DNA of 64,000 bases from Candidatus Gottesmanbacteria bacterium (GCA_963790805.1 CAWBPL010000002.1:448696-512695), one strand, 5' to 3'; counted from the stretch's first letter, positions 34,854 to 50,123 are shown. Program-made: numbers and translations. The notes: generated by a model not told the origin, from the letters alone.

Positions 34854-34887
34854 AGTTTAGCTTGCGCTGATGAGTGAAGCGACGAAG

Positions 34888-35254: not shown

Positions 35255-36970
35255 CAAGCTAGGAATTGAAGCAAACATTTCGTCCGTTTGAGCCGTTGGA
35301 ATGCTCTGTTTATCGGGTGCGAGTAATTCCTGAAGTATTGGTGCTTCTTTTTTCATCTTCTTGATCACAATAAACGGCAACGGGCTTTCAATACGCAGTG
35401 TTTTATCTTGTAATTTTAGGTGCGAACCTAACTTTGATAATATCTCCCGTTTCACTCCGAGGTCGGGTTCTGCGAACCGCTCACGTGCATGAGCGGCAAA
35501 ATTGAATTTCTCGTTTATCTCGTCTGCGGCTTGGAGCATACGTTCGTCTATACTGCCCATCTGCTTCCCTAATCCTTTAATTTCAGCTTCCAGTTTGAGT
35601 TTCTGTTCCTTGAATTGTTCGTCAGATAACATGCTTCCATCACTATTGAGTGGTGAAATTTTGAGTTTGACGAGATTATCAAGTTCTTTCCGGGCGTCAG
35701 AGTGGGCACGAGTCACCGATTGTATTGCTTCCTCTCGGAAATCCCGCTCACCGTCATTCATTACATTGATTTGTCTGATAGACCAATCTACGAAGCACTG
35801 TGGTATTTCAAGAGATGAAATTTCAGCATCAATCTGCTTTTCAAATAGATCAAGTCGTATGCCTTTTTGTGTACACCGTAGGTCTTTCCGGCGTTTACAG
35901 CGATAGTAAATGTAATGCAGGATTTTTGGCTCTTTCATTTGGTCAATACGAGTTTTGCACTGTGGACACGCTTCTTTATTTTTCTTCGTTAAAGAAAACT
36001 TGAGCTTACAGGTACGGCAAATACACTGCCATTTCTCCTCTGCGGTGATCGTGGAGCCACAAAACCCGCATTTTAGCAGTGACGTATATGCCCACTCGTG
36101 ATTTTTGAGATGATATTTGCTTTTATGACCGAGTATTACCTGCACTTCTTCAAATAACTCATCACTGATGGCGGGTTCATGTTTTCCTTCGTGCCATTCT
36201 CCGCTCCCTTCGGGGTACTCAAATTTGCCTGTGTAGAAGGGATTGCCGAGGATTTTATAGATATTGCTGATAGACAACGGTCGCCCCCCCATTCGTTTTT
36301 GTTGCCTTGTCCTGTAGCCCCATTCCTTTTCCGCTAACCGGTGTATCTCAGTCACCGGCGTACCTTTTCGGAATAGCTCAAATATCCTTTGAATGAACGG
36401 GAGCCGTTCTGGATCGGTTAAAACACGCCTAAAACCGCTTTCCGTGCCTTTATCATTGAGATACCCCTGTGGTGCAACACCTGGACGCCACCCATCACGG
36501 CATTTTTTATCAAGACCACGTTTCACTACAATCGCCTTATCATCACTGTCTTTTTTGGATAATCCAAACTCCAAAGTTAGCATAAACTTATCTTCCGGCG
36601 TGTTGTGATATGTCCGGGATGGTGTACGGACTTCAAGCAATTTTCCCATATCAAACAGGTCAATAATTCGTCCGCCGTCAGTCATATTACGAGCTAATCG
36701 GTTAGGATGCCACGTGACTATCGCATTCGCTTCACCCTGTTCTATCCGCGTAATCATTGATTCAAAAATAGGACGTCCTTTTACATGGGCTGATTGTGAT
36801 TCATCTAACACTTCGATAACTCGCAGATTATGGCGTGATTTCAGACCTTCAAGGATATAAAGTTGCTCCGGGAGAGAAGCAGCCTGCCGTTCCTTGTTAT
36901 CCTCGCTAGACTTGCGGGCATATCGAAGTATTTTAGTTGAACAGTTTTGAATCCATAATAAAGCCCCCAC
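35225..36970 (-). CDS. large serine recombinase (resolvase/invertase N-domain + recombinase domain + zinc ribbon + coiled coil)
   Basis: N-terminus ILRYARKSSEDN (catalytic Ser region), NAIVTWHPNRLARN, and a Cys-rich zinc-ribbon block CGFCGSTITAEEKWQCICRTCK...CPQCK. The 3' end overlaps the tRNA-like gene by 30 nt on the opposite strand. Confidence 0.85.
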   Translation of the reverse strand: MGALLWIQNCSTKILRYARKSSEDNKERQAASLPEQLYILEGLKSRHNLRVIEVLDESQSAHVKGRPIFESMITRIEQGEANAIVTWHPNRLARNMTDGGRIIDLFDMGKLLEVRTPSRTYHNTPEDKFMLTLEFGLSKKDSDDKAIVVKRGLDKKCRDGWRPGVAPQGYLNDKGTESGFRRVLTDPERLPFIQRIFELFRKGTPVTEIHRLAEKEWGYRTRQQKRMGGRPLSISNIYKILGNPFYTGKFEYPEGSGEWHEGKHEPAISDELFEEVQVILGHKSKYHLKNHEWAYTSLLKCGFCGSTITAEEKWQCICRTCKLKFSLTKKNKEACPQCKTRIDQMKEPKILHYIYYRCKRRKDLRCTQKGIRLDLFEKQIDAEISSLEIPQCFVDWSIRQINVMNDGERDFREEAIQSVTRAHSDARKELDNLVKLKISPLNSDGSMLSDEQFKEQKLKLEAEIKGLGKQMGSIDERMLQAADEINEKFNFAAHARERFAEPDLGVKREILSKLGSHLKLQDKTLRIESPLPFIVIKKMKKEAPILQELLAPDKQSIPTAQTDEMFASIPSLLRGQESRLV

Positions 36971-37120
36971 CGGGTGGACTCAGATCGGTGAAGACCTGTC
37001 CCAATGGGGGCATTAAAAATCTCCACCTAAATCTCTGAGTCCATATTTATTATATGACCAGTCATAAAGTTTTATCAAGTTTTTGAAGCTATTTTTAATA
37101 CATAGACTTTTCGGCAAATG

Positions 37121-37681
37121 TCAGTGCGTGCATAGTTTTATTGCTTTTTTTAAGGAAGATTCGATATTTTTTCGCATCTTGCCCGCATACCATTTCCGCT
37201 TCAATTTAGCTTCCATTTCATCCAGTTCTGGTGCACTCGTAACGTTTCCGAACGTTTTCCAGATTCCGCTTAATTTTTGGCTTTCATACGTGAGGTTGTA
37301 ACAGTGTCTACAGGCGAAGTGTTTACCTCCGAGATATAGAACGCCTACTCTCCTGCCGCAATAGACACCGTTGGCATACCAAGGGCACTGAAACCAGTAG
37401 CGAAAGCCCCCAAAGTGACAAGGAGTCGTAATTAACGGAACTTTATAGTCGAAGTCCTGTTTCTCGCCTGTATCACGGTCAGTTTGAGTATAGGTAAATC
37501 GAATGTATTGCTCGCTGTCATCTATGTTCGATTGAATACCAGTGCTTCCTGTTTTTTCCCCATTTCTCGACCATGTCATTGTTCCTGATATCCCGCTACT
37601 AAAGTAGCCGTGTTTTTTAAGAAAATACACACTTACTTGTTTGAGGCTATCTGCTTCTTCTTTAGATGACCATCTACTCAT
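37121..37681 (-). CDS. hypothetical zinc-ribbon protein
   Basis: CHFGGFRYWFQCPWYANGVYCGRRVGVLYLGGKHFACRHCYNLTYESQ (a CxxC-type four-Cys arrangement). Family not recognised. Confidence 0.45.
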   Translation of the reverse strand: MSRWSSKEEADSLKQVSVYFLKKHGYFSSGISGTMTWSRNGEKTGSTGIQSNIDDSEQYIRFTYTQTDRDTGEKQDFDYKVPLITTPCHFGGFRYWFQCPWYANGVYCGRRVGVLYLGGKHFACRHCYNLTYESQKLSGIWKTFGNVTSAPELDEMEAKLKRKWYAGKMRKNIESSLKKAIKLCTH

Positions 37682-37898
37682 ATATTCTCCTACATACCGA
37701 AATCATTAGAGATTCTCATAATTTAGCCTCAACTACATGTTACAAAACCACCATTTATTCATCATTTTTCTGGTTTTATAGCCTTTGTAGATCATGTAGA
37801 GGGTGTTTCCGGTACTGCCAACAAGGATTTTTGAGCATCAAGGTTATTTTTTGATACGCCTGACGCTTCCCTAGGAAACTCTACATCCTCTACTACCT

Positions 37899-39173
37899 CT
37901 ACTTGTTTATCTTGCGGGATGCCGTAGCGCTCGCAGAGCGTGTGTCCCTTATATTATCCCACAGAATTTCGGTAACTCCATTGATTCGCCGGGTATTGAA
38001 GTTAAATAGTGATGAGTTTATCTTTCCAATTTTTGCCGGTGATACAAGATATTCTCCCTGTTCTCTGCTGCGTTCGCTGTTTATACGCTTGGCGATTTCT
38101 TTACATCTCAACTCAACGCTTTCGGTTATCATCGCAATCATTGTCCGAAGCACCTGCGCCGGTAGCTCATCGCTCCTCTGTGAAGTCAAATTATCTGCAT
38201 ATCCTTTGACAAACCGTATAATTTCGTCCCGCGCTACATTATCTTCGGCAATACTCAATATCGGAAGAATAATTTGATTGATTCTTGGTTCTACACCCGA
38301 TAATGCAAGTTTTAGATCAACCTCAAGTTGTCCGTAGTGTTCTAGGCGAAAGCCTAAAAGGATATTTCTAAGCTCTAACGCTTCTTTATTAAACACTTTG
38401 GGTAAGTGGATAGGAATATCACTCCGGAGCTTATTTGACATAATTTCAGTGAGGCAACGACTTTCTAGCGCTGAATCATCGAATCGTTTTCTGGTACTGA
38501 TGAGCTTGGGACCGTAGACGATATAGCTTGTCGGCACCCTATCTTTGGCGTCTCCTTCTGTCCGAAGGATTGGTATGCCCTTACAGTAGCCACAGTTGAG
38601 TATTTTTATGATCTCTGCGGACGCATCCGAAAAGCGAAAATCCGCCTCATCAATGATGAGTGTCCCACGATAGAGATTGATAATGCGGAAAATGGGGGAT
38701 GGTGTCGTTGCACCGGCTACAAACATCGGTTTATAACAAAGGCTCCCTATAACCTTCTGAAACCGTGTTTTGCCGGTCCCGTAGTCTCCTAGCGCCCGGA
38801 GATAAGGGAGCACCTCGAAGCAGTCATAGACCCACGTGAGAAGCACGTAATAACTTGCGAGCTTGCGGTAGGAATCGGACACATCGAGGTATCGGTAGAT
38901 AAAATCCTCAATTTCATTGACCAGGTCAGCTACGTTTGCTCCAAACTTCGGGTATTCTGGAAGTAAGATGGTTCCGTTGGCAGTCAGATCGTCTTTTGGC
39001 GGGATGTACGTTACATCTCCAAACTCGTATTTATCCGTAACCTCGTTTTTTTGGGTTAGCAAGTTATAAACCACAAACATTGATGCCTGGTTATTGCCGA
39101 TAAGCTCCACGACATCACCGTTGCCGGGATCGAGAAAACTGGTCTGCTTGAATTTTGTTTTTTGGTCTGTCAT
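37899..39173 (-). CDS. P-loop NTPase, putative element replication (primase/helicase-like) protein
   Basis: Walker A GDYGTGKT and Walker B TLIIDEAD. 4-nt overlap with the upstream small gene. Confidence 0.45.
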   Translation of the reverse strand: MTDQKTKFKQTSFLDPGNGDVVELIGNNQASMFVVYNLLTQKNEVTDKYEFGDVTYIPPKDDLTANGTILLPEYPKFGANVADLVNEIEDFIYRYLDVSDSYRKLASYYVLLTWVYDCFEVLPYLRALGDYGTGKTRFQKVIGSLCYKPMFVAGATTPSPIFRIINLYRGTLIIDEADFRFSDASAEIIKILNCGYCKGIPILRTEGDAKDRVPTSYIVYGPKLISTRKRFDDSALESRCLTEIMSNKLRSDIPIHLPKVFNKEALELRNILLGFRLEHYGQLEVDLKLALSGVEPRINQIILPILSIAEDNVARDEIIRFVKGYADNLTSQRSDELPAQVLRTMIAMITESVELRCKEIAKRINSERSREQGEYLVSPAKIGKINSSLFNFNTRRINGVTEILWDNIRDTRSASATASRKINK

Positions 39174-39385
39174 ATAGGTTTAGGTTGAGATAAAAGCTTG
39201 CTCACTCGTTCGGTTTGCTGTCTTATTTTGTTATCGATGGTCGGCAAGATGCGCTCGTTGATAAACTTAGCCTTGTTTTTATCGCCGGTTCGCATAAAAT
39301 CTAGTCGTTTACAAAATAAGTCAGTGCTTTCGTCCAAATAAGCAACAAGCGTGTCTAGTTCAGCCAGTAATTCTTTTTTGTCCAT
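39170..39385 (-). CDS. hypothetical small protein
   Basis: 71-aa ORF in operonic overlap with the P-loop gene. Confidence 0.35.
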   Translation of the reverse strand: MDKKELLAELDTLVAYLDESTDLFCKRLDFMRTGDKNKAKFINERILPTIDNKIRQQTERVSKLLSQPKPI

Positions 39386-39542
39386 AAACCCCTAGTTTCG
39401 TTAATCGCTTTGGGAAATACACCACTCTCACCAAATCCACTAGCCTCGTGCCTTCCTCAAGCGCTTTTTCGTAGGATATTTCTTTCCCGAACGTTTGTTT
39501 ATAAAGTTTTTGATATTCCATAATGGCTTGTTGGGATAACAT
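39360..39542 (-). CDS. hypothetical small protein
   Basis: Start placed at MLSQQAIMEYQKLYKQTFGKEISYEKALEEG, which abuts the stop of the DUF5659 gene at 39545. Confidence 0.35.
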   Translation of the reverse strand: MLSQQAIMEYQKLYKQTFGKEISYEKALEEGTRLVDLVRVVYFPKRLTKLGVYGQKRITG

Positions 39543-39544
39543 AT

Positions 39545-39796
39545 TTACCCCCCATAAATGCGTGATTTTGCCTCTCGTAATGCGTAAAAATACTTTTTGG
39601 GGGTAACTGTTCCCGTGTCGTTCCAATACGCCTGAATTGCTTTTTGAAGCTCCGTGGTATTGGAAAAAACGAAGGTAACTTTTCCGGGATTAGATTTGTT
39701 GATAGAAACAAGAGGAAAATTCCATGCAATAAGCGCCGCAATTAGCGAAAGCTCTTGTGAAACAAAAACATTTTCTCGTAATTCTTTCTTAATCAT
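39545..39796 (-). CDS. DUF5659 domain protein
   Basis: SLIAALIAWNFPLVSINKSNPGKVTFVFSNTTELQKAIQAYWNDTGTVTPKKYFYALREAKSRIY resembles the DUF5659 pattern seen in phage or CPR mobile elements. Confidence 0.5.
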   Translation of the reverse strand: MIKKELRENVFVSQELSLIAALIAWNFPLVSINKSNPGKVTFVFSNTTELQKAIQAYWNDTGTVTPKKYFYALREAKSRIYGG

Positions 39797-39897
39797 GAAT
39801 TCACTAAGGCTTGATTACGAGACCCTGTCAAGCGCAATTTTCGTAGCTAATTCGTGAGAAGTATATGGTATGCCGTAATATGAAGTTGGATTACGAC

Positions 39898-40422
39898 CTA
39901 TGTTATCTTAAAAATCCAGTTTTTCTTTTTTCTGTTGAACGTCAAAAATAATCGCTCTTCTAACTTTGGTTTTTGTCTGTGTCGTTTGCGGATAGCTGTA
40001 GTACAACGCGATATAGGGGCATCTGGTCTGTTTTTGTGGAGCTCAATATAAATACTCATAACCTCTTCTGGAGTAAATTCTGTTTTCCCAGGGTTCCTTA
40101 TCCGCAAATTCCAAAAGGCTTCAAAGACTTTTCGTTCTTGAGGCGCAGAGCTAAAGTTGATTACATCGGACGATCCGTCTCCGAGCTTGAAAAATACTAC
40201 TCCATTTTGATACATCACCCTCTGCCCTGGAAGAAATTGTACAATCTTTCCAGTGTCTCTGAATTGTTGCAATAAGGGGATGTTGACGCCATTGAAGATG
40301 ATCTCGGCTTGATAAACGTCTTTGTACGGATTTGTAGACCAACCACGCAAACAGCCAGCAGCTTTCAGCTTATTTAGAAAAGCGCTAAATAATCGCCATT
40401 CCCCAAAATAATAATTGAACAA
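39898..40422 (-). CDS. hypothetical protein
   Basis: 174-aa ORF with a basic C-terminus (RKRHRQKPKLEERLFLTFNRKKKN). Family not recognised. Confidence 0.4.
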   Translation of the reverse strand: MFNYYFGEWRLFSAFLNKLKAAGCLRGWSTNPYKDVYQAEIIFNGVNIPLLQQFRDTGKIVQFLPGQRVMYQNGVVFFKLGDGSSDVINFSSAPQERKVFEAFWNLRIRNPGKTEFTPEEVMSIYIELHKNRPDAPISRCTTAIRKRHRQKPKLEERLFLTFNRKKKNWIFKIT

Positions 40423-40471
40423 ATTGTATTTATTGTTCCACTACCTGCTTCTGTCCATTGAAAAGTCATAT

Positions 40472-40672
40472 TTATTCCATGCGTTTCCTATCTTCTTGAG
40501 TACTTGCAATTTTTCGTTGGATAACAAGATCGTAATCTTTTTGTTTTTGATCAAGTTGGTTTTGATGAAGATTGATCGCCTTGTTTATATTTTCAATGTT
40601 ATCCGTGAGAGTATCAGGTATAACTGTCGGATAATAGATTTGTTGCGGTAACTGCTTTGATTTCTTTTTCAT
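40472..40672 (-). CDS. hypothetical small protein
   Basis: 66-aa ORF, first gene of the minus-strand module. Confidence 0.3.
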   Translation of the reverse strand: MKKKSKQLPQQIYYPTVIPDTLTDNIENINKAINLHQNQLDQKQKDYDLVIQRKIASTQEDRKRME

Positions 40673-40775
40673 TTTAATTTTAATAGTGAGCCTATTATAT
40701 CAGGAAAAACGACACGGTGGCTTCCAAAGTTATTCTATTTCTGGTATCGTACAGGGGACAATTTAATTGCCTAAA

Positions 40776-40880
40776 CTACCGAAAGGTAGCATGGCAGAAA
40801 AACCGGTAAAGAGCTGTAAGCTCTCGTCAGAGCATCTTTACCGGTCATGCAAGGAAACTTGCATGGGTGACGCAAGTCAT
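40776..40880 (+). ncRNA. candidate structured RNA leader (four consecutive hairpins, three with GNRA tetraloops)
   Basis: CTACC-GAAA-GGTAG (40776-40789). 11-bp helix ACCGGTAAAGA...TCTTTACCGGT (40802-40845). CATGCAAG-GAAA-CTTGCATG (40846-40865). TGAC-GCAA-GTCA (40868-40879). The GNRA loops exist only on the + strand. Confidence 0.45.
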
Positions 40881-40900
40881 CACTGGCGGGAGCTTTCTGT

Positions 40901-41269
40901 GTGAAATACATATCTAATTTATTCAAAGGTAGGCTGGGTGTAATTAACTACTGGATTGGTTGGATTATTCCAATAATACTATTTGGCGTTCTAGGCAACG
41001 CAATAATAGGGATTTCAAAGACCCCGGTTGGATTCATAGTTTTGATGTTTGTAGAGCTCGTATTATTTATATATTTCTTTTCTCTCTTTGTAAGGAGACT
41101 CCATGATAATGGCAAGAGCGGATGGTATCTGTTATGGAGTTTTGTTCCGTTGGTAAACTTATATCTCCTTGTGTTGCTATTTTATATTCCCGGAAACAAA
41201 AAAACTAACAAATTTGGTTCTCCTAATAATAAGGCTCGTTTAAGAAATATATTCGCATTAGAATCTTAA
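40901..41269 (+). CDS. DUF805 family inner-membrane protein
   Basis: RRLHDNGKSGWYLLWSFVPLVNLY is the DUF805 hallmark. GTG start. Confidence 0.7.
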   Translation: MKYISNLFKGRLGVINYWIGWIIPIILFGVLGNAIIGISKTPVGFIVLMFVELVLFIYFFSLFVRRLHDNGKSGWYLLWSFVPLVNLYLLVLLFYIPGNKKTNKFGSPNNKARLRNIFALES

Positions 41270-41299
41270 ACACGGAAGTGGGCTAAAATTTACATAAAA

Positions 41300-42055
41300 A
41301 TGAAAAGAATAATTTTAATAGTAATACTTCTTATAGGAGTTTCCCTTATAGCTATAGCGTTGAGCTATCCGATCAGAGAATACATCTTCAAAGAACAACA
41401 ACTTGGAGACCTCAATACCAAAGGTGGTGCAGAAATCACATTTCAATTTGACATGACAAATATACCAGAGGCTGAAAGAAATAAAGTATTTAATGAAAGC
41501 AAGGGTATTCTCTCTAGACGGATAGAATTCTTCGGACTCTACCCTTTTATGCAAGATTCTTCTAACTACGAAGTGGTTGTTCGGCTTGCTAATGTCAGGA
41601 ATCTTGATTTATTAGCGACTTTATTGGGAACTACAGCACAGTTGGATTTCCGTGAGTATACAAACCCGAATGCTTCAATCAGCGCGACAACAACAGTTGC
41701 GGATCTATTGAATATGACAAAATCCGTCGGTATAACCGGTAACGATTTGACGCATGCGCAGGTTACGTTTGACAATACAACTGGCGCACCGCAGGTAGCA
41801 ATCACTTTTAATGCTGCGGGCACAACAAAGTTGGCTAACGTTACACGACGTCTTGTTGGAAAGCCACTTGCTATATTTTTGGATAACAAATCTATTACTT
41901 CCCCGGTGATAAAACAGGAAATTACTGATGGATCTGCGGTTATCAACGGACAATTTACCCAGGATCAGGCAGAAACACTTGCTCTGCAACTTAATGCTGG
42001 CGCTCTCCCTACACCCGTTTCAATCCTTGAAAAACATATCATTAAAGCAAAATGA
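41300..42055 (+). CDS. SecD-like protein consisting only of TM1 plus the periplasmic P1 head/base domain
   Basis: GDLNTKGGAEITFQFD, LLGTTAQLDFRE and GKPLAIFLDNKSITSPVIKQEITDGSAVINGQFTQDQAETLALQLNAGALPTPVSI match SecD N-terminal motifs. The protein ends before the 5 C-terminal TM helices. Confidence 0.6.
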   Translation: MKRIILIVILLIGVSLIAIALSYPIREYIFKEQQLGDLNTKGGAEITFQFDMTNIPEAERNKVFNESKGILSRRIEFFGLYPFMQDSSNYEVVVRLANVRNLDLLATLLGTTAQLDFREYTNPNASISATTTVADLLNMTKSVGITGNDLTHAQVTFDNTTGAPQVAITFNAAGTTKLANVTRRLVGKPLAIFLDNKSITSPVIKQEITDGSAVINGQFTQDQAETLALQLNAGALPTPVSILEKHIIKAK

Positions 42056-42369
42056 AAACGATTTTAATAATCATCGCCTGCATATCCCTGATCACTATTT
42101 CTCTATCTGCTTCTTACTATTTTGTTATCTTTCTTCCTAAACAGGAGCGCGTTAATACCGCAACGCTTAAAAGAATTGAACAATCAACGGTAAATACTGA
42201 GGGGAATACCCAACCAATTATAGATACAACTGATATTCAAAATAAGCTAGACGATATAAATAACTCGTTACAAGAACAGCAAAGAGATACCGAATTGCGG
42301 AATAATTGTGAATCAAACGGAGGGGTTTATAGAGGGAACGGCGTATGTTGTCTTACCAACTGTCAATAA
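42052..42369 (+). CDS. hypothetical membrane-anchored protein with Cys-rich C-terminus
   Basis: N-terminal TM and C-terminal CESNGGVYRGNGVCCLTNCQ. ATGA overlap with the upstream gene. Confidence 0.4.
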   Translation: MKTILIIIACISLITISLSASYYFVIFLPKQERVNTATLKRIEQSTVNTEGNTQPIIDTTDIQNKLDDINNSLQEQQRDTELRNNCESNGGVYRGNGVCCLTNCQ

Positions 42370-42404
42370 AAAATAATTGGTGTCTGTGATTTTTTGAGTA
42401 ACCC

Positions 42405-43184
42405 ATGACTAAAACTTGTCCCTTTTGTAAAAAGCACGTAGATAAATCAGCGGCAGAATGTCCTCACTGTAAACGGGTACTGATTGAGTACATCGGTAAC
42501 CGTTCTTCTGTACCGAATCCTCATAAGACTACGATACTGGAAAGCATCAAAAAGCGCTTAGCTACCTTCCATAAACGTATACATAATACCCATATTAGGC
42601 TTCACAAGCCTTCTTTCAATAAGAATTATCTATGGATCATTCCGGTTATCATTTTTCTTGTTATTCTTGCGTCCGGGCACACCGGCAATCTCACAAGTAC
42701 GGATAGTTCTGAAAATATCCCGACCAGCACAACGGAAAACTCATTACCCACGAACTACAACAGACTATCAAACGGATCGGTACTGTCTTCCCGTATTGTT
42801 AGCAGTTCGGGGTTAGGTACCTTTGAGATTGATAACGGCACAGAAGATGATGCCGTTGCAAAATTAGCGAATACAAAAATAGGTGTATCGGTATTTACCG
42901 TATTTATCCGAGCAAACTCAAAGTTTACCATTACGAAAATACCCGATGGAACGTATATGCTCTATTTTCAAACGGGAAAAGATTGGGACAATACCGCGAA
43001 GAAGTTTTTGTACTACCCGTCTTTTTCACAGTTTACCGATGATTTTCAGTACACGACGACCCATATAGAGACGTACGATGCCATCAATACGAGATACTCA
43101 ACCTATCAAGTGACGCTCAACCCTGTAGCCGGTGGAACAGCGAAAACGAACGCCGTTTCAGAGAGCGAGTTTGAAAAGTATTAG
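42405..43184 (+). CDS. zinc-ribbon / TM / extracytoplasmic-domain protein
   Basis: CPFCKKHVDKSAAECPHCKR, TM (LWIIPVIIFLVILASG), C-terminal beta-rich domain. Confidence 0.45.
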   Translation: MTKTCPFCKKHVDKSAAECPHCKRVLIEYIGNRSSVPNPHKTTILESIKKRLATFHKRIHNTHIRLHKPSFNKNYLWIIPVIIFLVILASGHTGNLTSTDSSENIPTSTTENSLPTNYNRLSNGSVLSSRIVSSSGLGTFEIDNGTEDDAVAKLANTKIGVSVFTVFIRANSKFTITKIPDGTYMLYFQTGKDWDNTAKKFLYYPSFSQFTDDFQYTTTHIETYDAINTRYSTYQVTLNPVAGGTAKTNAVSESEFEKY

Positions 43185-43198
43185 CGCGATCAATACGT

Positions 43199-43498
43199 AT
43201 GTACCAATTTGATAAATATGCACGTCCCTATTGCACAACTTGTAAGTTGTTTTGGGGAAAACAGAATATAGGAACCCTCTTGAGTTGTACGAAGTTCGGT
43301 CGACGGTTGATCTTAAAATCTTTTAATCCCTTTGCCCAATGCGTGAAGGGGTTAGGAATAATGAGCTTAGGCGGATTATCTATGGTACTCGGGCTTCCCA
43401 TTATTTGGATCGGTGGTTTCCTATGGGGAGGTCAACAGATCCTTCACGCATTTAAGCAATGGGGCGACGTAAAGGCGTTGGATAATAAGACGTTATGA
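43199..43498 (+). CDS. hypothetical small membrane protein
   Basis: 99-aa ORF with a Cys pair near the N-terminus and a G-rich TM hairpin. Confidence 0.35.
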   Translation: MYQFDKYARPYCTTCKLFWGKQNIGTLLSCTKFGRRLILKSFNPFAQCVKGLGIMSLGGLSMVLGLPIIWIGGFLWGGQQILHAFKQWGDVKALDNKTL

Positions 43499-43654
43499 TG
43501 CCTTGCTTGAAACTGATTGATCATGCGTTATTCGACGAATTTTACCACTCAGGATAGGGATTACATCCCTAAGGGCAATCCTAGCTACAGCTGAGGCTGT
43601 GTAATGCCGTAAAACGATCGGAAAGGTGAGAGGTGACGTTATATAGCTTCAATT

Positions 43655-43683
43655 TTGACAAGCTGCCGTGTGACTGTTAGTAT
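43655..43683 (+). promoter_or_regulatory. sigma70-like promoter upstream of the NUDIX gene
   Basis: TTGACA (43655-43660), 17-nt spacer, TAGTAT (43678-43683). Confidence 0.45.
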
Positions 43684-43793
43684 AAATATAGCTTTAGCGA
43701 TTCGAAAGAATGTCCATTGCAGCTACCAGTATTTTGGGGCTGCATTTTTTGTGTTAAGCCCCAAAAATATAAACAGTAGATTGGAGGTGGAAT

Positions 43794-44192
43794 ATGGAAA
43801 ACAAAATTTATGTATCAGTCTATGCGCTGATAAAAAACACTAACGGGCGTTACCTGTTTATTCAAAGGGCAAATAATGATTCCATGCCGGGCGTCTGGGA
43901 AGTGCCCGGGGGTAAAACGGAGTATGGTGAAGACCCGAAAGAATCCTTAAAAAGAGAGGTGATGGAGGAGGTTGGGTTAAACATTGAGCCATTAAACCCC
44001 TTTTGTGTGGTCTCCCATATAAGTCTGGAGAAGCAAGCCGTAAGAATTGTTTATACGGCTAATTTAATAAAATCCGGTGATGTTAAGCTAAGTTCGGAAC
44101 ACGCAGCGTTTAAGTGGGCTGATTTCTCTGATCTCGAAGTTAGCAGCTCGCTTTTTTTACAGCAGGTATATAAAAATTTGAAGGAATCTTGA
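43794..44192 (+). CDS. NUDIX hydrolase
   Basis: Nudix box GVWEVPGGKTEYGEDPKESLKREVMEEVGL. Confidence 0.85.
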   Translation: MENKIYVSVYALIKNTNGRYLFIQRANNDSMPGVWEVPGGKTEYGEDPKESLKREVMEEVGLNIEPLNPFCVVSHISLEKQAVRIVYTANLIKSGDVKLSSEHAAFKWADFSDLEVSSSLFLQQVYKNLKES

Positions 44193-44294
44193 TTGATTTT
44201 ACCCTTGGGATAGAGAAGCCTTGAATAATAATCTTTTCCCTATCAATCAGGTTAATCTAAACTTAATTGATAGGCGTTTTTGGTGAGATAATAG

Positions 44295-44316
44295 GTTCTG
44301 ATTTTTTAGATCTGGG
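44295..44316 (+). repeat. diverged copy of the island repeat block
   Basis: ATAATAG|GTTCTGATTTTTTAGATCTGGG shares ATAATAGGTTCT with copy A and GTTCTGATTT with the copy at 35168. Confidence 0.4.
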
Positions 44317-44322
44317 AATGCT

Positions 44323-44352
44323 ATAAAAACAAAGACCCCGGCTTTCGCCGGG
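44323..44352 (-). terminator. rho-independent terminator of the NYN gene
   Basis: GC hairpin CCCGGC-gaaa-GCCGGG on the minus strand, followed by GTCTTTGTTTTTAT. Confidence 0.6.
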
Positions 44353-44454
44353 TGAAGTAATTAACTGCATCTTATATCATCAAAAACTGTTTGTCAAGAG
44401 ATAGCCCATTCTGACCGCTAAAACAGCATATTCCGTCATTTACGCAGGGCAAAT

Positions 44455-45177
44455 TCATGCCGATTTTTTCTCGTATTTCAATATTCTTTCCAAATCCTCA
44501 AGCCGGGTATATGTTACATAGGGGGACTGGAATGCAAGCACCTTAAGCTCATGTGATATTCTAGTTTCAAAACTGAAAATATGAACAGGCTTCCCAATAC
44601 TAGTTGTTTGTTTTACGAGTTTTTCAAAGTCTGAATCCCCAGCGAAGAGAATAAGTTCGTTCCATTGCTGCTGTTCTATTATGGCGTCAATCATCAGGTC
44701 ACCATCAGTCTTATTGGATGGTTTATGCTCGTCCCCCAAGATAAACTTCAATGGTTTGGAAACGACGCGTATACCGATGCCTCTTAATCCGTTCTCAAAT
44801 CTTAATGCCCCTTCGTTCAAAATATAATTTCCTTTAGCATCTTTTTGGTATTTGCCGTTTGCGTCCTGCTTGTAGCCAGTGCAGTTATAGTAACTGATAA
44901 TCGCAATTGAGTATTTTCGTTCGATGAATTGACGAAGACTCGCGTAGTTTACTTGCCAACCCGCTATTTTCCCTCCATGGTAAACGTTTGACCCATCAAT
45001 ATACAGGCCCACCTTGGACTTCACCTTTCCGGTAATCGAAGCGAACGGGACAAGCCAAGTTTTCCCTTTTTTAACAGCACCGGGTATCTGGTCGTTTTGG
45101 CAACGTTTTTTCAATGTTTCTTGATCTATTTCTGAGAGCTGTTCAGCCTCGATTAAGGTAATTAGAGAATCACTCAT
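44455..45177 (-). CDS. HTH (excisionase/MerR-like) + NYN (LabA-like) ribonuclease-domain protein
   Basis: N-terminus LITLIEAEQLSEIDQETLKKRCQNDQIPGAVKKGKTWLVP (HTH_17-like). Then VGLYIDGSNVYHGGK...LILFAGDSDF, the acidic NYN motifs. Confidence 0.6.
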   Translation of the reverse strand: MSDSLITLIEAEQLSEIDQETLKKRCQNDQIPGAVKKGKTWLVPFASITGKVKSKVGLYIDGSNVYHGGKIAGWQVNYASLRQFIERKYSIAIISYYNCTGYKQDANGKYQKDAKGNYILNEGALRFENGLRGIGIRVVSKPLKFILGDEHKPSNKTDGDLMIDAIIEQQQWNELILFAGDSDFEKLVKQTTSIGKPVHIFSFETRISHELKVLAFQSPYVTYTRLEDLERILKYEKKSA

Positions 45178-45325
45178 GAATATATTTTACCGGTATCGGT
45201 AATTGTTGTCAAGTAACATGCTCAAATTCTCTGTTCGTGTCAGAAAATGATTATAGTTATTATGTGGAAAATATCATCAAAATCGACTAAAATAGCCATA
45301 CTCCAAGAGATAGAAAGAGAAGGAT

Positions 45326-45736
45326 ATGGATACTTACAAATACATCGGAACAGTGAGCTATACGGTGTTAGATAGTAATTTTGGCACTGCTCAGTGGCAA
45401 CCAAAGACTTTTTATGGCGCACCTTTGGGAACCATAATCACTCTCCCGCCTATGTTTCTGAGTGCATTCGGTTCCGCCGGTACATCTTTACCCACCATTT
45501 CTTCATACGGGCAGCCGTACGTGGCTGCGGTGAATATAGTGAGGCAAGATTATGAGTTTGGTAAACCAGTTTTTGACTTGGATCGTTACATTGTTAAGCC
45601 GACAAATTACTACGGAATCGTGTTGAAGGAGCGACCAGATAGTCAACATCATCTAAATCCCGAAAGTAAGCTTATAGATTTTCTTGAGCCGAGGTTACAA
45701 GTTAATATTAAAAAAACGCTTAAATCGAACAGGTGA
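45326..45736 (+). CDS. hypothetical protein (cassette 1)
   Basis: 136-aa ORF followed by repeat copy A. No recognisable family. Confidence 0.4.
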   Translation: MDTYKYIGTVSYTVLDSNFGTAQWQPKTFYGAPLGTIITLPPMFLSAFGSAGTSLPTISSYGQPYVAAVNIVRQDYEFGKPVFDLDRYIVKPTNYYGIVLKERPDSQHHLNPESKLIDFLEPRLQVNIKKTLKSNR

Positions 45737-45780
45737 TGAAATCAACTGATAGATTGATATTGCTTGGGATGTATAATCAA

Positions 45781-45814
45781 ATAATAGGTTCTAACTTCTT
45801 GTAACCCCCGCAAC
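45781..45814 (+). repeat. island direct repeat, copy A
   Basis: ATAATAG GTTCTAACTTCTTGTAACCCCCGCAAC (core 45788-45814). Confidence 0.85.
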
Positions 45815-45981
45815 TTAAGATAAATAGTCCGTCAATACAGACCATATTACAGCTGCCCTCCTCATCCTATTAAATTAGTGGATTAACTTATGTCACTAAT
45901 TTAATAAAAGTTGTTAGCCTAACCATTGTCGTTAATAATGTTTGAAGTATAATAGCTTCAAATAAGGTAAATAAATTTACT

Positions 45982-46449
45982 ATGGTTGAAGACGTTAATA
46001 ATCCCACTCCAGAACAGGAAGTTGGTACTATAGAGACGGATATTATTAAATTAGTTAATCAATTAGAGCTAACAGATCAACTAACTGATGTTAGTCAAAC
46101 CGGTCTTTTCAAACAAACACGGTCATACCAGCATGATGTAGGTGAACGTATATCTGCGGGATTATTTGTTGAAGCGGAAACACTTAATCAAGTAGTTGGT
46201 GGCCTTTTGGGGAAAGATATAGCTGATAAAACAGTCGGAGAAGATTTAGTCACAGAAGTTGGAATTTGGCTTAACGGTGAAAAAGGTGCAGAACAGTATG
46301 TTATTCGATCAGGTGATCTTTGGCTTCAAAAAAATGGAGGAAAAAATAAAAAAATTATCCCAACCACAGATGACACGTTGAACATAAGAAATATATTGGA
46401 AACTATTCGTGCAGAGATCCCACGAGAAACATTAAGCCAAAATTCTTAG
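45982..46449 (+). CDS. hypothetical acidic protein (cassette 2)
   Basis: 155-aa ORF. A TATAAT at about 45948 lies upstream. Followed by repeat copy B. Confidence 0.4.
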   Translation: MVEDVNNPTPEQEVGTIETDIIKLVNQLELTDQLTDVSQTGLFKQTRSYQHDVGERISAGLFVEAETLNQVVGGLLGKDIADKTVGEDLVTEVGIWLNGEKGAEQYVIRSGDLWLQKNGGKNKKIIPTTDDTLNIRNILETIRAEIPRETLSQNS

Positions 46450-46588
46450 CTTCATATTGCTTTTTGTACGTTACCATTATCCATCGTTTTAATATAAAAT
46501 TTTAGTAGCTCTGCGTTATTTGAATTATTGTGTTCCACGTTCGTAGCTGGTTTTCAAGGTATTTTAGATTTATATTGTAAGCAAATAT

Positions 46589-46633
46589 GTTCTAACTTCT
46601 TGTAGTCCCCGCAACCAAAATTAGTTTAGGCTG
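46589..46633 (+). repeat. island direct repeat, copy B
   Basis: GTTCTAACTTCTTGTAGTCCCCGCAAC CAAAATTAGTTTAGGCTG. Confidence 0.85.
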
Positions 46634-46700
46634 TAAATACCTTCTATTTAATGTGTCATCGCCTTGATCAAAATCCCAACTAGTCCTATAATACCAATTT

Positions 46701-47360
46701 ATGGCGACTCCCTATCTGGAGACGGGACGATTTCGTCCTGACGTTTTATCATTTGTAAACGTGGAATTCCGTCATGGCGTGAAAGATGATAGTTACGGCT
46801 ACCATGGAACAAGCATTTACGCACTTCTTACCATGCTTCGCACCGGAGTTATTCCATGAAGGACAAGACCTGAAGCGCCTCGGATTGCTGGACATCCCCG
46901 CGAGGGTGATCTCTATATTTGGAAAAGCGACCCGTCGGATTATCGCTCTAAAGACGCGATTCATTACGCGACAACGTACGCGAGACTTGCCGCTCAAAAG
47001 CATAGTTTTATGAGTGAACTGGGTTTATCTTTCGATGATGAGAGCAATATGTATGCTGCATTGCAATTAACCGATCCATACGGTCAGGGTAACGATCGGG
47101 ACCGCCAACTTGAATTTCTGGAGCAAAAGGGTCTATCCGAAGCTCAGATTAACAAAGCGGTTACACATGCACGCGGGATGAAAGGGGTGCTTATCGGGTT
47201 ATCTGCGAGCGTAGCTACTCAATTTCCTATCGTTGATTGTTCCCCTGACGATGGATGGAAAATTGAAACACAGAACGGTCTACCGTTCCAGTTTGTTGAA
47301 GGCATTCGATTTTTAGGTCATCAGGACGAACAATTGTTTCGTCAAAACCTAACACAATAA
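46701..47360 (+). pseudogene. 219-codon reading frame interrupted by one in-frame TGA (cassette 3); the track shows only the distal 116 aa
   Basis: ATG at 46701, TGA at 46857-46859, and the same frame stays open to the TAA at 47358-47360. TTGATC-17-TATAAT promoter at about 46662-46690. The N-terminal part contains YGYHGTSIYALLTMLRTGVIP. Confidence 0.5.
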
Positions 47361-47375
47361 TTATTAAGGCAATAG

Positions 47376-47410
47376 ATTCCAAGTTTTTTTGTAACCCCCG
47401 CGACGAGGCT
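47376..47410 (+). repeat. island direct repeat, copy C (more diverged)
   Basis: ATTCCAAGTTTTTTTGTAACCCCCGCGAC GAGGCT. Confidence 0.75.
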
Positions 47411-47412
47411 AA

Positions 47413-47439
47413 ATGGAGCGTACTAACGCTCCATTTTTT
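47413..47439 (+). terminator. rho-independent terminator
   Basis: ATGGAGCG-tactaa-CGCTCCAT followed by TTTTT. Confidence 0.75.
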
Positions 47440-47456
47440 GTGATACACTGTAGTCA

Positions 47457-47729
47457 ATGATTAAAACAAAAAAACAGGTCGTGGTTGGTGGCATCTATAG
47501 ACATTGTCACGGGCTTCATTATCGCATTAATTCAATTGGTCTTAATGTTACCAACTATGAGAAAGGCAACAAAACGTTTCCCCGATTTGTTGTATATACG
47601 CAGCTTGAAGCGGGAAAGTTTCCCGCAGGAACGATATGGGTTTGTGATGAACACGATTTTTTGGGAACAACCAAAGGGGAAAAAGGTCAAGTGGTAAACA
47701 TATTTGAGCTTGTTGAAGATAAAAAATAA
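47457..47729 (+). CDS. DUF1653 domain protein (cassette 4)
   Basis: GGIYRHCHGLHYRINSIGLNVTNYEKGNKTFPRFVVYTQLEAGKFPAGTIWVCDEHDF fits the DUF1653 pattern (YRHyKG..Y...VvY..l...W.R....F). Confidence 0.6.
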   Translation: MIKTKKQVVVGGIYRHCHGLHYRINSIGLNVTNYEKGNKTFPRFVVYTQLEAGKFPAGTIWVCDEHDFLGTTKGEKGQVVNIFELVEDKK

Positions 47730-47770
47730 GTTCTAAGTTCTTGTAACCTCCGCAACCAAATTTGAGGCTG
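47730..47770 (+). repeat. island direct repeat, copy D (starts the nucleotide after the stop codon)
   Basis: GTTCTAAGTTCTTGTAACCTCCGCAAC CAAATTTGAGGCTG. Confidence 0.85.
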
Positions 47771-47774
47771 ATAT

Positions 47775-47803
47775 TTGACAAAAGAGCCTATAAATGCGAT
47801 ACT
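47775..47803 (+). promoter_or_regulatory. sigma70-like promoter of the T-box leader
   Basis: TTGACA (47775-47780), 17-nt spacer, GATACT (47798-47803). Confidence 0.6.
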
Positions 47804-47809
47804 TTTACC

Positions 47810-48127
47810 CTAAGTGAATACAGGCGATGTGGAGTGAGGATGGAGCCCACTTCATGAAAGAAATGTCGAACTTTCATGACGCTGACCCTAATCAGGTACG
47901 GAGGCGAAACCGTAAAAAGTCTGTCAACATATGTCGCAAGTAGCGGAGTATGTCATAAACAAGACTTCTTACATGACGTGCTTCCTTAAAGGGAAGCATT
48001 TTTTGTAGGCAAGTGAAACCCTCTTTCGTTGAAACTACGGAGGGTAAACAAGGTGGCACCGCCCTCAATAAGAGAGCCCTTGTAAGTCTTTCAGGACTTT
48101 TTCTGGGAGATTTGCAAGGGTTTTTTT
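47810..48127 (+). promoter_or_regulatory. T-box riboswitch leader (transcription attenuation type)
   Basis: T-box sequence AACAAGGTGGCACCGCC (48047-48063). Antiterminator: A1 CAAGG/CCTTG, 7-nt bulge TGGCACC, A2 GCCCTC/GAGAGC. Competing 13-bp terminator CCCTTGTAAGTCT...AGATTTGCAAGGG (48077-48120) plus T7. Stem III ACCCTC/GAGGGT. Upstream GCGATG/AGTGA elements. Confidence 0.8.
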
Positions 48128-48222
48128 ATAGCGATAGTTCAGTTGGCAGAACGCGTGTGCGGAATGCGTGAGCGCTACGCGGTTGGGGCTTGAATCGCCG
48201 GTTCGATTCCGGCCCCGCCTGC
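48128..48222 (+). ncRNA. tRNA-like element of unclear status (canonical D arm and T arm, no foldable acceptor or anticodon arm)
   Basis: TA-GTTC-AGTTGGCA-GAAC (48135-48152) and GCCGG-TTCGATT-CCGGC (48197-48213), followed by CCCGCCT-G. The 44 nt between them gave no 5-7-5 anticodon arm with U33, and no AGGCGGG 5' strand is present. Confidence 0.35.
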
Positions 48223-48257
48223 ACGGTAAAAATTATTTGATACAATAAGGAGGTTGT

Positions 48258-50123
48258 ATGAAAGATCGAATAGTTCAAAAATATAGTGAAGAGTTAACGA
48301 AACTCGGAATTCATCACGAGGTATTTGAGCATCCGCAACTTATTTCTGTTGAAAAAGTGCAAAAGTATCTGGGGTATGGAATGGATGATTCTGCGGCAAC
48401 GCTGGTGATGAAAGCAGGGGATCGATTTGTCGCAATTATTCGTAGGGGAGACACGAAGCTCGATAGCGAAAAAGTCAAAAAATTATTAAACGTTACGACG
48501 CTTCGTATGGCGACGGAAGAAGAATTTTCCGATGTTACGGGTGTGCCAAGTGGAGCGGCGAGTGTGTATATTCCCAATATTCCAACGTTTATTGATAAGC
48601 GGATTTTTGAAAAACAATACATTAATGCAGGATCCGGCAGTCTTTTATATACCATTCGATATAAAGCAGAAGATTTAAAAAAGATTCCAGGGATAACCGT
48701 TGTTAATGTAACAAACGCAGATAACGCTTTAACCCCTGTAGAAAAATTAGAGGTGCCTAAGGGTAAACGGCTCTATTCTGCTATTACGCCCAGTGGTGAT
48801 GGGACACTCCATATCGGCAACTATCTCGGTGCGGTGCGGCAGTTTATTGAACTTGCAAAATACAATGAGTGTTTTTTTCAGCTGGCGACCATTCACGGAC
48901 TCACAACCATTCAGGATCAAAAGCAACTGGCTGGAAACATCGAGCGGTTAACTCTCAACGAACTGGCGCTTCTTGGAGAAAATCCTAATATTTATTTCTG
49001 TTATCAATCAGATATTCCCTATCACACCGAGCTCCAATCGATTCTCAATAATGTGACACCCTTGGGACTGCTTAAGCGTGCGCATGCGTATAAAGACAAA
49101 CTTGGTAAAGATGTCATGGAAGATGATATAAACGTCGGTTTGTTTAGTTATCCTATGCTCATGGCTGCTGACATATTGATTTATAAAGCCACGCTCGTGC
49201 CGGTGGGGAGGGATCAAAAACAGCACGTGGAAATAACGAGAGATATAGCAGAGCGGTTTAATAGGATTTATAAGAAGAAAGTATTTCCGCTTCCTGATCC
49301 TTATATACCCGAAGAAGTAGCGGTCATTCTCGGTACCGATGGGCAGCGAAAAATGAGTAAAACGCTTGGAAACATCATAAGTATTTTTGAAGATGAGGAA
49401 GTTATTAGAAAACAGGTAAACGGAACGTTTACCGATCCGACCCGGAAACACGTGACTGATCCTGGTCATGTTGAGGGAAACATGGTATTCACCTACCTCG
49501 ACTTTTTTGGTGAAAAGGAAAAAGTCAGTGAACTCAAGGAGCTCTATAAAGCAGGTAAAGTAAGCGACGTCGAAGTGAAAAAATATTTATTCGAAGCACT
49601 TATGAAGACATTCGCTCCCGCGAGGGCCCGGTATGCGGATCTCGTTGCCAACCCTGAAAAAGTGAAAAAGATTTTAGATCGGGGACGTGGGCACGCACTA
49701 GAGGTAGCATCCAAGACGATGGCAGAAGTGCGTGAGGCGGTCGGGTTTACGAATCGATATTCATTGGGACAACCATCAACGCAGGTTACTGGTAATAGCA
49801 AAATCACAATCGATGATTTTGCCAAAGTAGATGTACGGGTAGGAAAAGTTGAGGCAGCGGAAAATGTCGAAAAGAGCGAAAAACTCATCCGGCTGCATGT
49901 GGATTTCGGGAGTGGCGGCAAGCGGATTATTTTTACCGGCGTCCGGCAGTTTGGCTATACGGCGGAATATTTTACCGGTAAACAATTTTTCTTTGTGTTT
50001 AACCTTGAGCCGCGAAAGATGATGGGGGAGGAAAGTCAGGGAATGATTGTTGCGGTTGATGGCTCTCAAAAACCCATCTTCTTGTCAGGTGAAGGAATGC
50101 CGCTGGGGGCACGAATTCGATAA
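48258..50123 (+). CDS. trpS: tryptophan--tRNA ligase fused to an N-terminal YbaK/ProX-like editing domain and a C-terminal Trbp111/EMAPII-like tRNA-binding domain
   Basis: aa 1-165: ATLVMKAGDRFVAIIRRGDTKLDSEKVKKLL...GVPSGAASVY (YbaK-type). Core: ITPSGDGTLHIGNYLGA (HIGH), VPVGRDQKQHVEITRDIAERFN, KMSKTLGN. C-terminus: IDDFAKVDVRVGKVEAAENVEKSEKLIRLHVDFG (OB-fold tRNA-binding). AGGAGG RBS at 48249-48254. Confidence 0.8.
   Translation: MKDRIVQKYSEELTKLGIHHEVFEHPQLISVEKVQKYLGYGMDDSAATLVMKAGDRFVAIIRRGDTKLDSEKVKKLLNVTTLRMATEEEFSDVTGVPSGAASVYIPNIPTFIDKRIFEKQYINAGSGSLLYTIRYKAEDLKKIPGITVVNVTNADNALTPVEKLEVPKGKRLYSAITPSGDGTLHIGNYLGAVRQFIELAKYNECFFQLATIHGLTTIQDQKQLAGNIERLTLNELALLGENPNIYFCYQSDIPYHTELQSILNNVTPLGLLKRAHAYKDKLGKDVMEDDINVGLFSYPMLMAADILIYKATLVPVGRDQKQHVEITRDIAERFNRIYKKKVFPLPDPYIPEEVAVILGTDGQRKMSKTLGNIISIFEDEEVIRKQVNGTFTDPTRKHVTDPGHVEGNMVFTYLDFFGEKEKVSELKELYKAGKVSDVEVKKYLFEALMKTFAPARARYADLVANPEKVKKILDRGRGHALEVASKTMAEVREAVGFTNRYSLGQPSTQVTGNSKITIDDFAKVDVRVGKVEAAENVEKSEKLIRLHVDFGSGGKRIIFTGVRQFGYTAEYFTGKQFFFVFNLEPRKMMGEESQGMIVAVDGSQKPIFLSGEGMPLGARIR

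Follow-up and report, generated by a model that had tools for sequence, protein, structure and literature searches.

A repeat-delimited cassette array beside tRNA-fMet in a Candidatus Gottesmanbacteria genome: a putative SCC-like composite island of a large serine recombinase family

The DNA analysed here is a 64-kb stretch from Candidatus Gottesmanbacteria bacterium (GCA_963790805.1 CAWBPL010000002.1:448696-512695), referred to below as the window. It contains a tRNA-fMet gene, which is classed as initiator-type because of its C1:A72 mismatch, and an array of small open reading frames (ORFs) that are punctuated by four direct copies of a repeat, named A to D. The last 9 nt of the tRNA gene, CCCCGCAAC (35247-35255), are the core common to every repeat, an identity between repeat terminus and tRNA 3' end that a preliminary description of this DNA had already pointed out. 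Between the tRNA and copy A lie a gene for a large serine recombinase (LSR) and its variable cargo. To the left of the tRNAs are genes for a Xer-like tyrosine recombinase, DivIC, and LeuRS, and to the right of the array is the gene for TrpRS (Table 1). From comparative sequence evidence, we conclude that this structure is a putative composite island resembling the staphylococcal cassette chromosome (SCC), built by a tRNA-fMet-targeting LSR family in bacteria of the candidate phyla radiation (CPR).

Table 1. Features of the tRNA-fMet locus and the cassette array; positions are counted from the first nucleotide of the window.
Feature	Position	Strand	Remarks
Xer-like tyrosine recombinase	33540-34400		Confirmed; profile match to XerC/D/A
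Elongator tRNA-Met	34887-34959	-	Window
Initiator tRNA-fMet gene	35185-35255	+	ARAGORN, Rfam, and sequence; putative attL-side target
LSR, 581 aa	35225-36970	-	Last 31 nt overlap the tRNA-fMet 3' end
Putative attL element-side flank (P' arm), AAGCTAGGAATTGAAGCAAACATTT	35256-35290	+	Encodes the LSR C-terminus on the opposite strand
Variable cargo of the tRNA-proximal LSR element	36971-45778		Unknown ORFs, LOOT RNA, DUF805, SecD-head-like gene, NUDIX, NYN, c1
Left-arm-only copy, AGATAATAGGTTCTGATTTT	44286-44305	+	Without the tRNA-derived right half; left-arm matrix 22.3 vs 95% null 13.1
Repeat A	45779-45814	+	Putative attR-type junction of the LSR element
Repeat A trailer: degenerate hairpin	45815-45847	+	Diverged relative of the hairpin directly after tRNA-fMet in L101
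Cassette 2	45815-46615	+	Promoter-like site 45926-45953, ORF c2 45982-46449 (155 aa, ORFan), repeat B
Repeat B	46580-46615	+	Closes cassette 2
Cassette 3	46616-47404	+	Trailer-like block 46616-46635 ending AGGCTG, promoter-like site 46664-46692, ORF c3, repeat C
Repeat C	47367-47404	+	Closes cassette 3
Cassette 4	47405-47756	+	GAGGCT block and terminator hairpin 47411-47436, ORF c4 47457-47729 (90 aa, ORFan), repeat D
Repeat D	47721-47756	+	Closes cassette 4
Flank of D	47757-47803	+	Trailer-like GAGGCT...AGCCT stem, promoter-like site 47775-47803

The four co-oriented copies on the plus strand had been reported at 45788-45814, 46589-46615, 47376-47404, and 47730-47756, and both sequence reading and a repeat finder place them there. 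A search of the window with a 19-mer core and up to three mismatches returned 4 matches, against 0.00 expected from 100 shuffles. A position weight matrix derived from 40 repeat copies of other genomes scored 60.2 for A, 52.3 for B, and 50.5 for D, with a shuffle maximum of 0.0. Copy C, the most degenerate of the four, has a 2-nt insertion and was recovered by the right-half matrix (23.1 vs a 95% null of 16.9). Conservation reaches about 9 nt further left (ARAWAATAG) than was first recognized and stops sharply after CAAC. Neither the mismatch search nor the matrix scan found dispersed copies within the 64-kb window outside this locus. The array is not an assembly artefact, since a separate assembly of run ERR11594402, in which this strain is present (L116; L numbers denote the loci compared), independently reproduces 45796-47844 at 100% identity. 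The L116 contig begins within repeat A, which fits an assembly-graph branch at that junction.

Three weaker copies had also been proposed, and one of them survives in part. The copy at 44295 is real as a left arm only (44286-44305) and may represent a truncated older junction; a comparable half-copy lies 79 nt upstream of a repeat in L089 and L086. The segment at 35168-35184 is instead a 5' leader hairpin abutting the tRNA, kept with different loops in L092, L101, and L106, and the match of its loop to the repeat in the window genome is a chance resemblance. The candidate at 40732-40748 was unsupported by the matrix scans.

Each copy follows the stop codon of a small ORF, at distances of 51 (A), 139 (B), 15 (C), and 0 nt (D), within the 0-140 nt first given, and the alternation of ORF and repeat at module boundaries beside the tRNA is likewise borne out. 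One ORF requires correction: c3 (46701-47360), described as a single frame, contains an in-frame TGA at 46857-46859 and under table 11 is either two pieces or a pseudogene. Among 5.8 billion proteins, c2 and c4 recovered only themselves; c1 (45326-45736) has 22 homologues of like length and no known domain. Scans of the island and cassette ORFs against PHROGs and NCBIfam gave no phage or defence assignment for c1-c4. Within the LSR element, a LOOT RNA (RF03000, 87.6 bits) lies on the plus strand at 40768-40881, at a divergent-gene junction, which suggests that LOOT RNA travels on mobile DNA.

Comparison of 40 distinct copies defines the conserved unit as ARAWAATAG-GTTCTRANTTCTTGTAAY-CCCCGCAAC, spanning -9 to +26, with information content falling abruptly right after CAAC. 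It joins an element-side arm (about 27 nt, consensus ARAWAATAG-GTTCTRANTTCTTGTAAY) to CCCCGCAAC, after which comes a flank that resembles a tRNA-fMet trailer. The left arm and the corresponding stretch of the tRNA agree at only 5-6 of 27 nt; a derivation of this arm from the anticodon/T-arm region was therefore dropped, given this ungapped value and an ATAAT/TTCTA resemblance that is not general. In L073, the tRNA-fMet 3' end and its terminator are duplicated 1.5 kb downstream, directly behind a conserved arm, and in L088 a double hairpin follows both the tRNA and the repeat, the two flanks being paralogous and differing by compensatory changes. The second block that the preliminary description had seen after B, C, and D is real: its GAGGCT is the outer stem of the tRNA-fMet trailer in L088 and L108. 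A terminator hairpin usually comes next after the repeat. The repeat is thus a hybrid in which a foreign arm precedes the 3' end and the trailer of the tRNA, as in an attR junction, and a hybrid junction of this type accounts for the lack of a palindrome. Inverted copies of the left arm, GGGGAACAAGTTAGAACCTAG, occur 8-12 nt after the repeat in L049 (751-790) and after the first copy in L097; in L108 (reverse complement, 19613-19640), a GIY-YIG gene is inserted between the two arms, and the inverted left arm lies where this gene ends on its 3' side. These inverted copies may mark a true palindromic site or a GIY-YIG target.

A degenerate 19-mer scan of 185,579 species genomes gave 79 loci, with about 69 expected by chance; the full 27-mer was present in six loci, a single one in each of those six genomes. 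An exact scan of metagenome contigs added 26 loci, of which about 24 are real. In all 13 loci that contain both tRNA-fMet and the repeat, the two share a strand and the repeat is the downstream one; the copies within any locus are all co-oriented. Arrays of 2-4 copies, at spacings of 0.3-3.3 kb, occur in several loci (four full copies and a half-copy in the window, three each in L108 and L081, four in L097). The gene order around the repeats is conserved: LeuRS, Xer, DivIC, and tRNA-Met come before tRNA-fMet and its repeats, and tRNA-Trp and TrpRS come after them, so the repeat is specific to one locus rather than dispersed. A dispersed element of the repetitive extragenic palindromic type is unsupported, given the confinement of the window copies to one locus and the single locus in each of the six genomes.

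The LSR protein carries the Pfam domains PF00239 Resolvase (3.8e-15), PF07508 Recombinase (5.3e-12), and PF13408 Zn_ribbon_recom (6.5e-4), with a YARKSS motif in its N-terminus, and profiles confirm both this gene and the Xer-like gene as first annotated. NCBIfam gave weak CcrB and XisF matches, far under cutoff; the scores against the Ccr profiles (CcrB 63.4 bits, CcrA 53.7, CcrC 33.1; cutoffs 700-900) place the enzyme outside the Ccr family. At E <= 1e-20 it has 753 homologues, the named ones being assigned to Gottesmanbacteria, Levybacteria, Daviesbacteria, or Microgenomates. Seven further LSR contexts were fetched, with 44-94% identity to the window LSR.

In 7/7 genomes with an LSR of 52-100% identity, the gene is antisense to tRNA-fMet and its 3' end overlaps the tRNA 3' end. 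The overlap is 31 nt in the window (100%; repeat 10.5 kb away), L108 (75%; 9.2 kb), L112 (58%; contig ends before the repeat distance is measurable), and L113 (56%; 8.1 kb), and 13 nt in L114 (52%; 6.0 kb); it is also present in L106 (94%; 11.4 kb) and L110 (63%; 6.2 kb), where it was read from the called LSR ends against the homology-placed tRNA 3' end, the other lengths being computed. The most distant context, L115 (44%), has no tRNA nearby and no repeat was found in it. A repeat stands at the far end of the LSR-bearing variable DNA, 6.0-11.4 kb off, in 6/6 sufficiently long loci, and the core is directly repeated at both ends of the insert, as CCCCGCAAC at the tRNA and in the distal repeat. 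In loci that lack the LSR, the first repeat is only 0.4-3.5 kb from the tRNA. Moreover, the similarity of the repeat to the window type broadly drops with LSR identity (60.2, 57.5, 57.9, 48.6, 42.5, 19.3), and the flank after tRNA-fMet follows the consensus CAAC-A[AT][AG]G[CGT]TAGGAAT[TAG]GA[AG]GC in the window, L106, L108, and L110, with related versions in L112, L113, and L114. The preliminary description had found that known models fitted poorly, treating the LSR as an incidental neighbour; the constant tRNA overlap and far-end repeats argue instead that the LSR is the cognate integrase of the repeats, an assignment made on comparative evidence.

Apart from the LSR, these elements have little cargo in common: just three small or medium cargo ORFs of the window element have relatives in other LSR elements. 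Defence-type cargo is seen in two related elements, with DruA, NurA-like, and DUF87/HerA-like genes in L113 (3667-7772) and a PycTM-domain gene in L114 (6159-6695).

Breakpoints between loci coincide with the repeat. L088 contains tRNA-fMet, its trailer, and a GIY-YIG gene, whereas L108 contains tRNA-fMet, a 9.2-kb LSR element, and the repeat, beyond which the trailer and GIY-YIG gene of L088 recur; this empty and this occupied site align from exactly CCCCGCAAC onward. The contigs L080, L083/L098, L086, L090, and L089 are identical over the 110 nt that lead to the end of the repeat and then continue into four unrelated right flanks (22-37/90 identical). They come from one set of samples and from different genomes, with Xer proteins 77% and 56% identical to that of the window and differing synteny, and comparison of them shows that one element end has spread horizontally. 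An 843-nt cassette is present in L090 and absent from L086, with flanks identical at 94/94 positions. Presence/absence polymorphism with breakpoints at the repeat had been named beforehand as a pattern to look for, and it is found both here and in the shared-end contigs. The ends of at least five contigs fall no more than about 125 nt from a repeat, that of L089 exactly at CAAC. Finally, a Fic cassette bounded by repeats on both sides occurs in L049 and L108, with 75% nt identity over 1366 nt and homology that ends at the repeats.

Amino acid identity between the window and L106/L100 is 93% for the LSR, 86% for Xer, 70% for TrpRS, and 49% for LeuRS, and this excess of the LSR over its neighbours indicates horizontal spread. 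LSR elements also decay in place: about 40 nt of P' flank, still encoding an LSR-like C-terminus, are left behind tRNA-fMet in L096 and behind the second of the repeat copies in L097, two loci that have no LSR gene. In 10 of 13 multi-copy loci, the tRNA-proximal copies outscore the distal ones and are closer to the consensus.

We consider it probable that the repeats are site-specific recombination junctions at the tRNA-fMet 3' end, an integration hot spot at which serial accretion has brought together elements integrated by an LSR and cassettes that lack one. Three candidate layouts were named at the outset, and the evidence favours accretion at a tRNA att site. The hybrid repeat, the fixed positions of LSR and repeat, the breakpoints at the core, and the gain or loss of single cassettes all emerge from comparison between genomes. 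According to the mechanism proposed, an LSR-bearing element would integrate by a crossover within or beside CCCCGCAAC, probably within its C-run, and the LSR would presumably catalyse this and the other events. The tRNA would stay intact, as the element brings a new CCCCGCAAC along with the P' flank of its own, in which the LSR C-terminus is encoded. Displaced to the far end of the insert, the former 3' end and trailer of the tRNA would be joined to the element's ~27-nt arm, and this fusion would be the repeat. Successive insertions at the tRNA would shove older inserts outward, with the resulting order tRNA-fMet, LSR element, A, c2, B, c3, C, c4, D, chromosome. The small LSR-less cassettes may then be older inserts, either decayed or mobilised in trans, and the stop codon in c3 is taken as a sign of decay. 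Excision of the LSR element would restore an empty site in which CTCCTGGCCCCGCAAC is joined to TTAAGATAAATAG (35255 joined to 45815), and the circular form would join TTCTTGTAACCCCCGCAAC to AAGCTAGGAATTG (45814 to 35256); attP can accordingly be reconstructed as 45760-45814 joined to 35256-35300. The common core of 9 bp may be compared with 5-8 bp for serine integrases and 25-76 bp for the tRNA sites of tyrosine integrases (PMC8092301), and its length fits a serine rather than a tyrosine system.

Several observations weigh against serial accretion by the LSR. Canonical LSRs are not known to integrate into attL, so accretion would need either a Ccr-like promiscuity or a cassette P' that mimics the native trailer. 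An ungapped dyad scan of the reconstructed attP of four elements gave at best 8-11/22 pairs, against a null maximum of 10.7 +/- 1.1; the site shows just a gapped, hand-made resemblance (CTTGT/ACAAG, TTCTAA/TTCCTA). To the right of CAAC nothing is strongly conserved ([TG]AGG in 8/40 flanks vs 2.7 expected), and the host-side canonical half-site is therefore just partly defined. The trend from proximal to distal copies is partly biased, as the loci were found via an exact match to one copy, and the nearly perfect state of D, the outermost copy, blurs the age gradient. A conserved Xer-like gene lies within ~1-12 kb in most loci and could have a role for the LSR-less cassettes. A scan of viral contigs for the core gave no match and no free attP form. 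For this genome, neither an excised circle nor a restored empty site came to light, and recombination was not directly observed; L107, considered as an excised circle, bears chromosomal flank at its left end and is unsupported as such.

The alternative that survives best is an integron-like platform, in which single-gene, LSR-less cassettes, a good number of which hold ORFans, are captured, shuffled, and lost in trans by the LSR at tRNA-fMet via a conserved 36-nt site, so that selection would preserve the repeat as the recombination site of autonomous cassettes (c2-c4 and their counterparts). We regard this as a tentative possibility. The cassettes are compact (0.3-1.3 kb, mostly one ORF co-oriented with the repeat), and those of the window bear promoter-like and terminator-like sites. 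The arm is 85-100% conserved beside unrelated cargo in genomes between which intergenic DNA can no longer be aligned, identical flanks are seen with and without a single cassette, and Fic and GIY-YIG cassettes recur at differing array positions. There is also precedent in SCC, where Ccr excises recombinase-less tandem cassettes in every combination (PMC11470126). However, most cassette loci have no LSR in the sequence at hand, the left flanks of the cassettes are trailer-like rather than of the LSR-type P', and the greater degeneracy of distal copies, together with the c3 pseudogene, is what would be expected of scars. Homologous recombination between repeats of 27-36 nt could likewise drop cassettes, and the movement of c2 and c4 is untraceable, as they have no relatives.

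It is improbable that the Xer-like tyrosine recombinase, rather than the LSR, acts on the repeats in the manner of integrative mobile elements exploiting Xer (IMEX) or pdif modules. A Xer-like gene does occur near the repeat in most sufficiently long loci, and the shared 9-bp core would suit the overlap region of a tyrosine recombinase. Nevertheless, this gene is part of a LeuRS-Xer-DivIC-tRNA-Met block conserved with or without inserts, it scores as XerC/D/A and not as an integron or phage integrase, and the size of the variable DNA follows the presence of the LSR, not of Xer. On reading, the repeat has no dif-like 11-6-11 dyad; the attP dyad scan is not significant, the repeat does not fold, and its copies are all direct rather than alternating. 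Cumulative GC skew climbs across the window with minor local dips and no sustained reversal, so the locus is not a replication terminus. The initial judgement that the array is neither an integron nor a dif/Xer system therefore stands, as there is no IntI, no fold, and no dyad, and the copies are direct.

Still less probable is a role for the repeat as an RNA or transcription signal in 3' untranslated regions, for example a processing site mimicking the tRNA-fMet acceptor end or part of a terminator. The repeat usually lies between an ORF and a terminator hairpin and is thus probably transcribed, and it holds the 3' strand of the tRNA acceptor. Yet RNA folding of the copies gave z values of -0.01, +1.91, and -0.58, reaching -2.09 only when the separate terminator was included, and an Rfam search, at a permissive threshold too, gave no relevant match for the repeat. 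Such a signal would also leave unexplained why strain breakpoints fall exactly at the repeat end, and the repeat occupies one locus per genome, exclusively downstream of tRNA-fMet. That tandem duplication of the tRNA-fMet region left the repeats behind as inert remnants, in effect decayed tRNA pseudogenes, is hardly credible: every copy does have a tRNA 3' end and a trailer-like flank, but the left arm, so unlike the tRNA body (5-6/27), is strongly conserved across genomes, the copies are separated by unrelated genes, and the LSR linkage and clean insertion polymorphisms indicate recombination.

The surroundings of the array have features of their own. To the right of D, sequence conserved with relatives restarts at 47881. 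The terminator-ended stretch 47881-48008 is 79-93% identical at the nucleotide level over its first 39-57 nt in L106, L110, L092, L066, L049, and L096; its relatives sit just upstream of tRNA-Trp where tRNA-Trp is seen, it matches no Rfam family, and it is a candidate small RNA or leader. Just before TrpRS, 48139-48240 aligns to the tRNA-Trp gene of L106, with the anticodon arm swapped for ~38 unrelated nt. ARAGORN calls no tRNA there and the Rfam tRNA score is 21.6 bits; the segment is either a disrupted tRNA-Trp or a tRNA-Trp with an unusual insertion. TrpRS itself (48258-50123) combines an N-terminal YbaK-type editing domain with a C-terminal EMAP/MetG-C-like tRNA-binding domain in an unusual three-domain architecture. 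The tRNA-fMet gene of the window has no intron. In L106, a group I intron of ~200 nt splits the anticodon loop of this tRNA (11755-11971, minus strand; RF00028, 58.4 bits, E 2.3e-14), and an intron is likely also in L092 and L101, from split blastn matches, and in L110, from non-tRNA sequence after the anticodon-loop CTCA. In L073 (~2170-2272, minus strand), the intact tRNA-fMet gene is preceded, ~100 nt upstream, by a 13-nt fragment of the tRNA-fMet 5' end, CGCGGGGTAGTGT, with its promoter; the two are separated by a ~90-nt insert with inverted ends, resembling a small insertion with a 13-bp target duplication.

Of the known systems, the SCC islands of staphylococci, including SCCmec, offer the closest parallel. 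In those islands, tandem cassettes without a recombinase, separated by LSR att sites, have been described (PMC11470126). Both systems have an LSR as their enzyme, here a probable assignment; both integrate at the 3' terminus of a housekeeping gene that is conserved and stays intact; both have direct-repeat att sites between tandem cassettes, of which one suffices to encode the recombinase; and both carry cargo of defence or toxin type, here Fic, NYN, NUDIX, DruA/NurA/HerA, and PycTM in the window or its relatives. They differ in the target (an initiator tRNA gene here, rlmH in SCC), in the enzyme (here a single gene that is not a Ccr orthologue, with CcrB at 63 bits against a cutoff of 900, vs the ccrAB pair), and in the much smaller cassettes (0.3-3.5 kb, often one ORF) and the host (Microgenomates, CPR) of the present system. 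Moreover, excision in trans is known for Ccr, whereas here there is presence/absence polymorphism alone.

Genomic islands, prophages, and cis-mobilisable remnants that tyrosine integrases have stacked in tandem at tRNA 3' ends share with this locus a regenerated tRNA 3' end, displaced 3' fragments that mark old junctions, and an order in which the newest inserts lie nearest the tRNA and old ones decay. The present enzyme is a serine recombinase, and the island ORFs that were searched against Pfam include no tyrosine integrase. In addition, the core is 9 bp rather than 25-76 bp (PMC8092301), an element arm of ~27 nt is kept at the junction, and the integrase gene overlaps the tRNA in antisense. 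With integrons, the array shares the alternation of ORF and site, small co-oriented cassettes, diverse and often ORFan cargo, and an adjoining recombinase gene. It differs in having no IntI-type integrase, a site that is not a folded imperfect palindrome, cassettes with promoter-like and terminator-like signals of their own, and a tRNA gene as platform. A true integron is excluded by the score of the Xer-like gene against the integron profile TIGR02249 (70.6 bits, cutoff 265) and by the absence of a fold. IMEX and pdif modules are similar in being small, bounded by short sites, mostly without an integrase of their own, and close to a Xer gene; in the window, by contrast, no 11-6-11 dyad is read, all sites are direct, GC skew does not reverse, and the boundaries track the LSR.

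In the literature searched, serine integrases are described as inserting within ORFs, and tRNA sites as the domain of tyrosine integrases; the search found no report of a tRNA-targeting LSR in CPR bacteria. The analysis defines a widespread LSR family (Gottesmanbacteria, Levybacteria, and Daviesbacteria) with a probable natural target, the initiator tRNA-fMet 3' end, and a sharply bounded element-side site. Almost no genetic tools are known for CPR bacteria, and an LSR, an attP of ~60 bp, and a universal, essential tRNA target would provide the parts for a site-specific integration tool. For the biology of these organisms, the locus appears to be a hot spot where accessory, defence-like, and ORFan genes gather and turn over in very small genomes, and it would extend the SCC-style logic of tandem cassettes far beyond staphylococci. 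If the integron-like platform were true, an LSR and a tRNA gene would give Microgenomates, at their tRNA-fMet locus, a functional counterpart of the integron.

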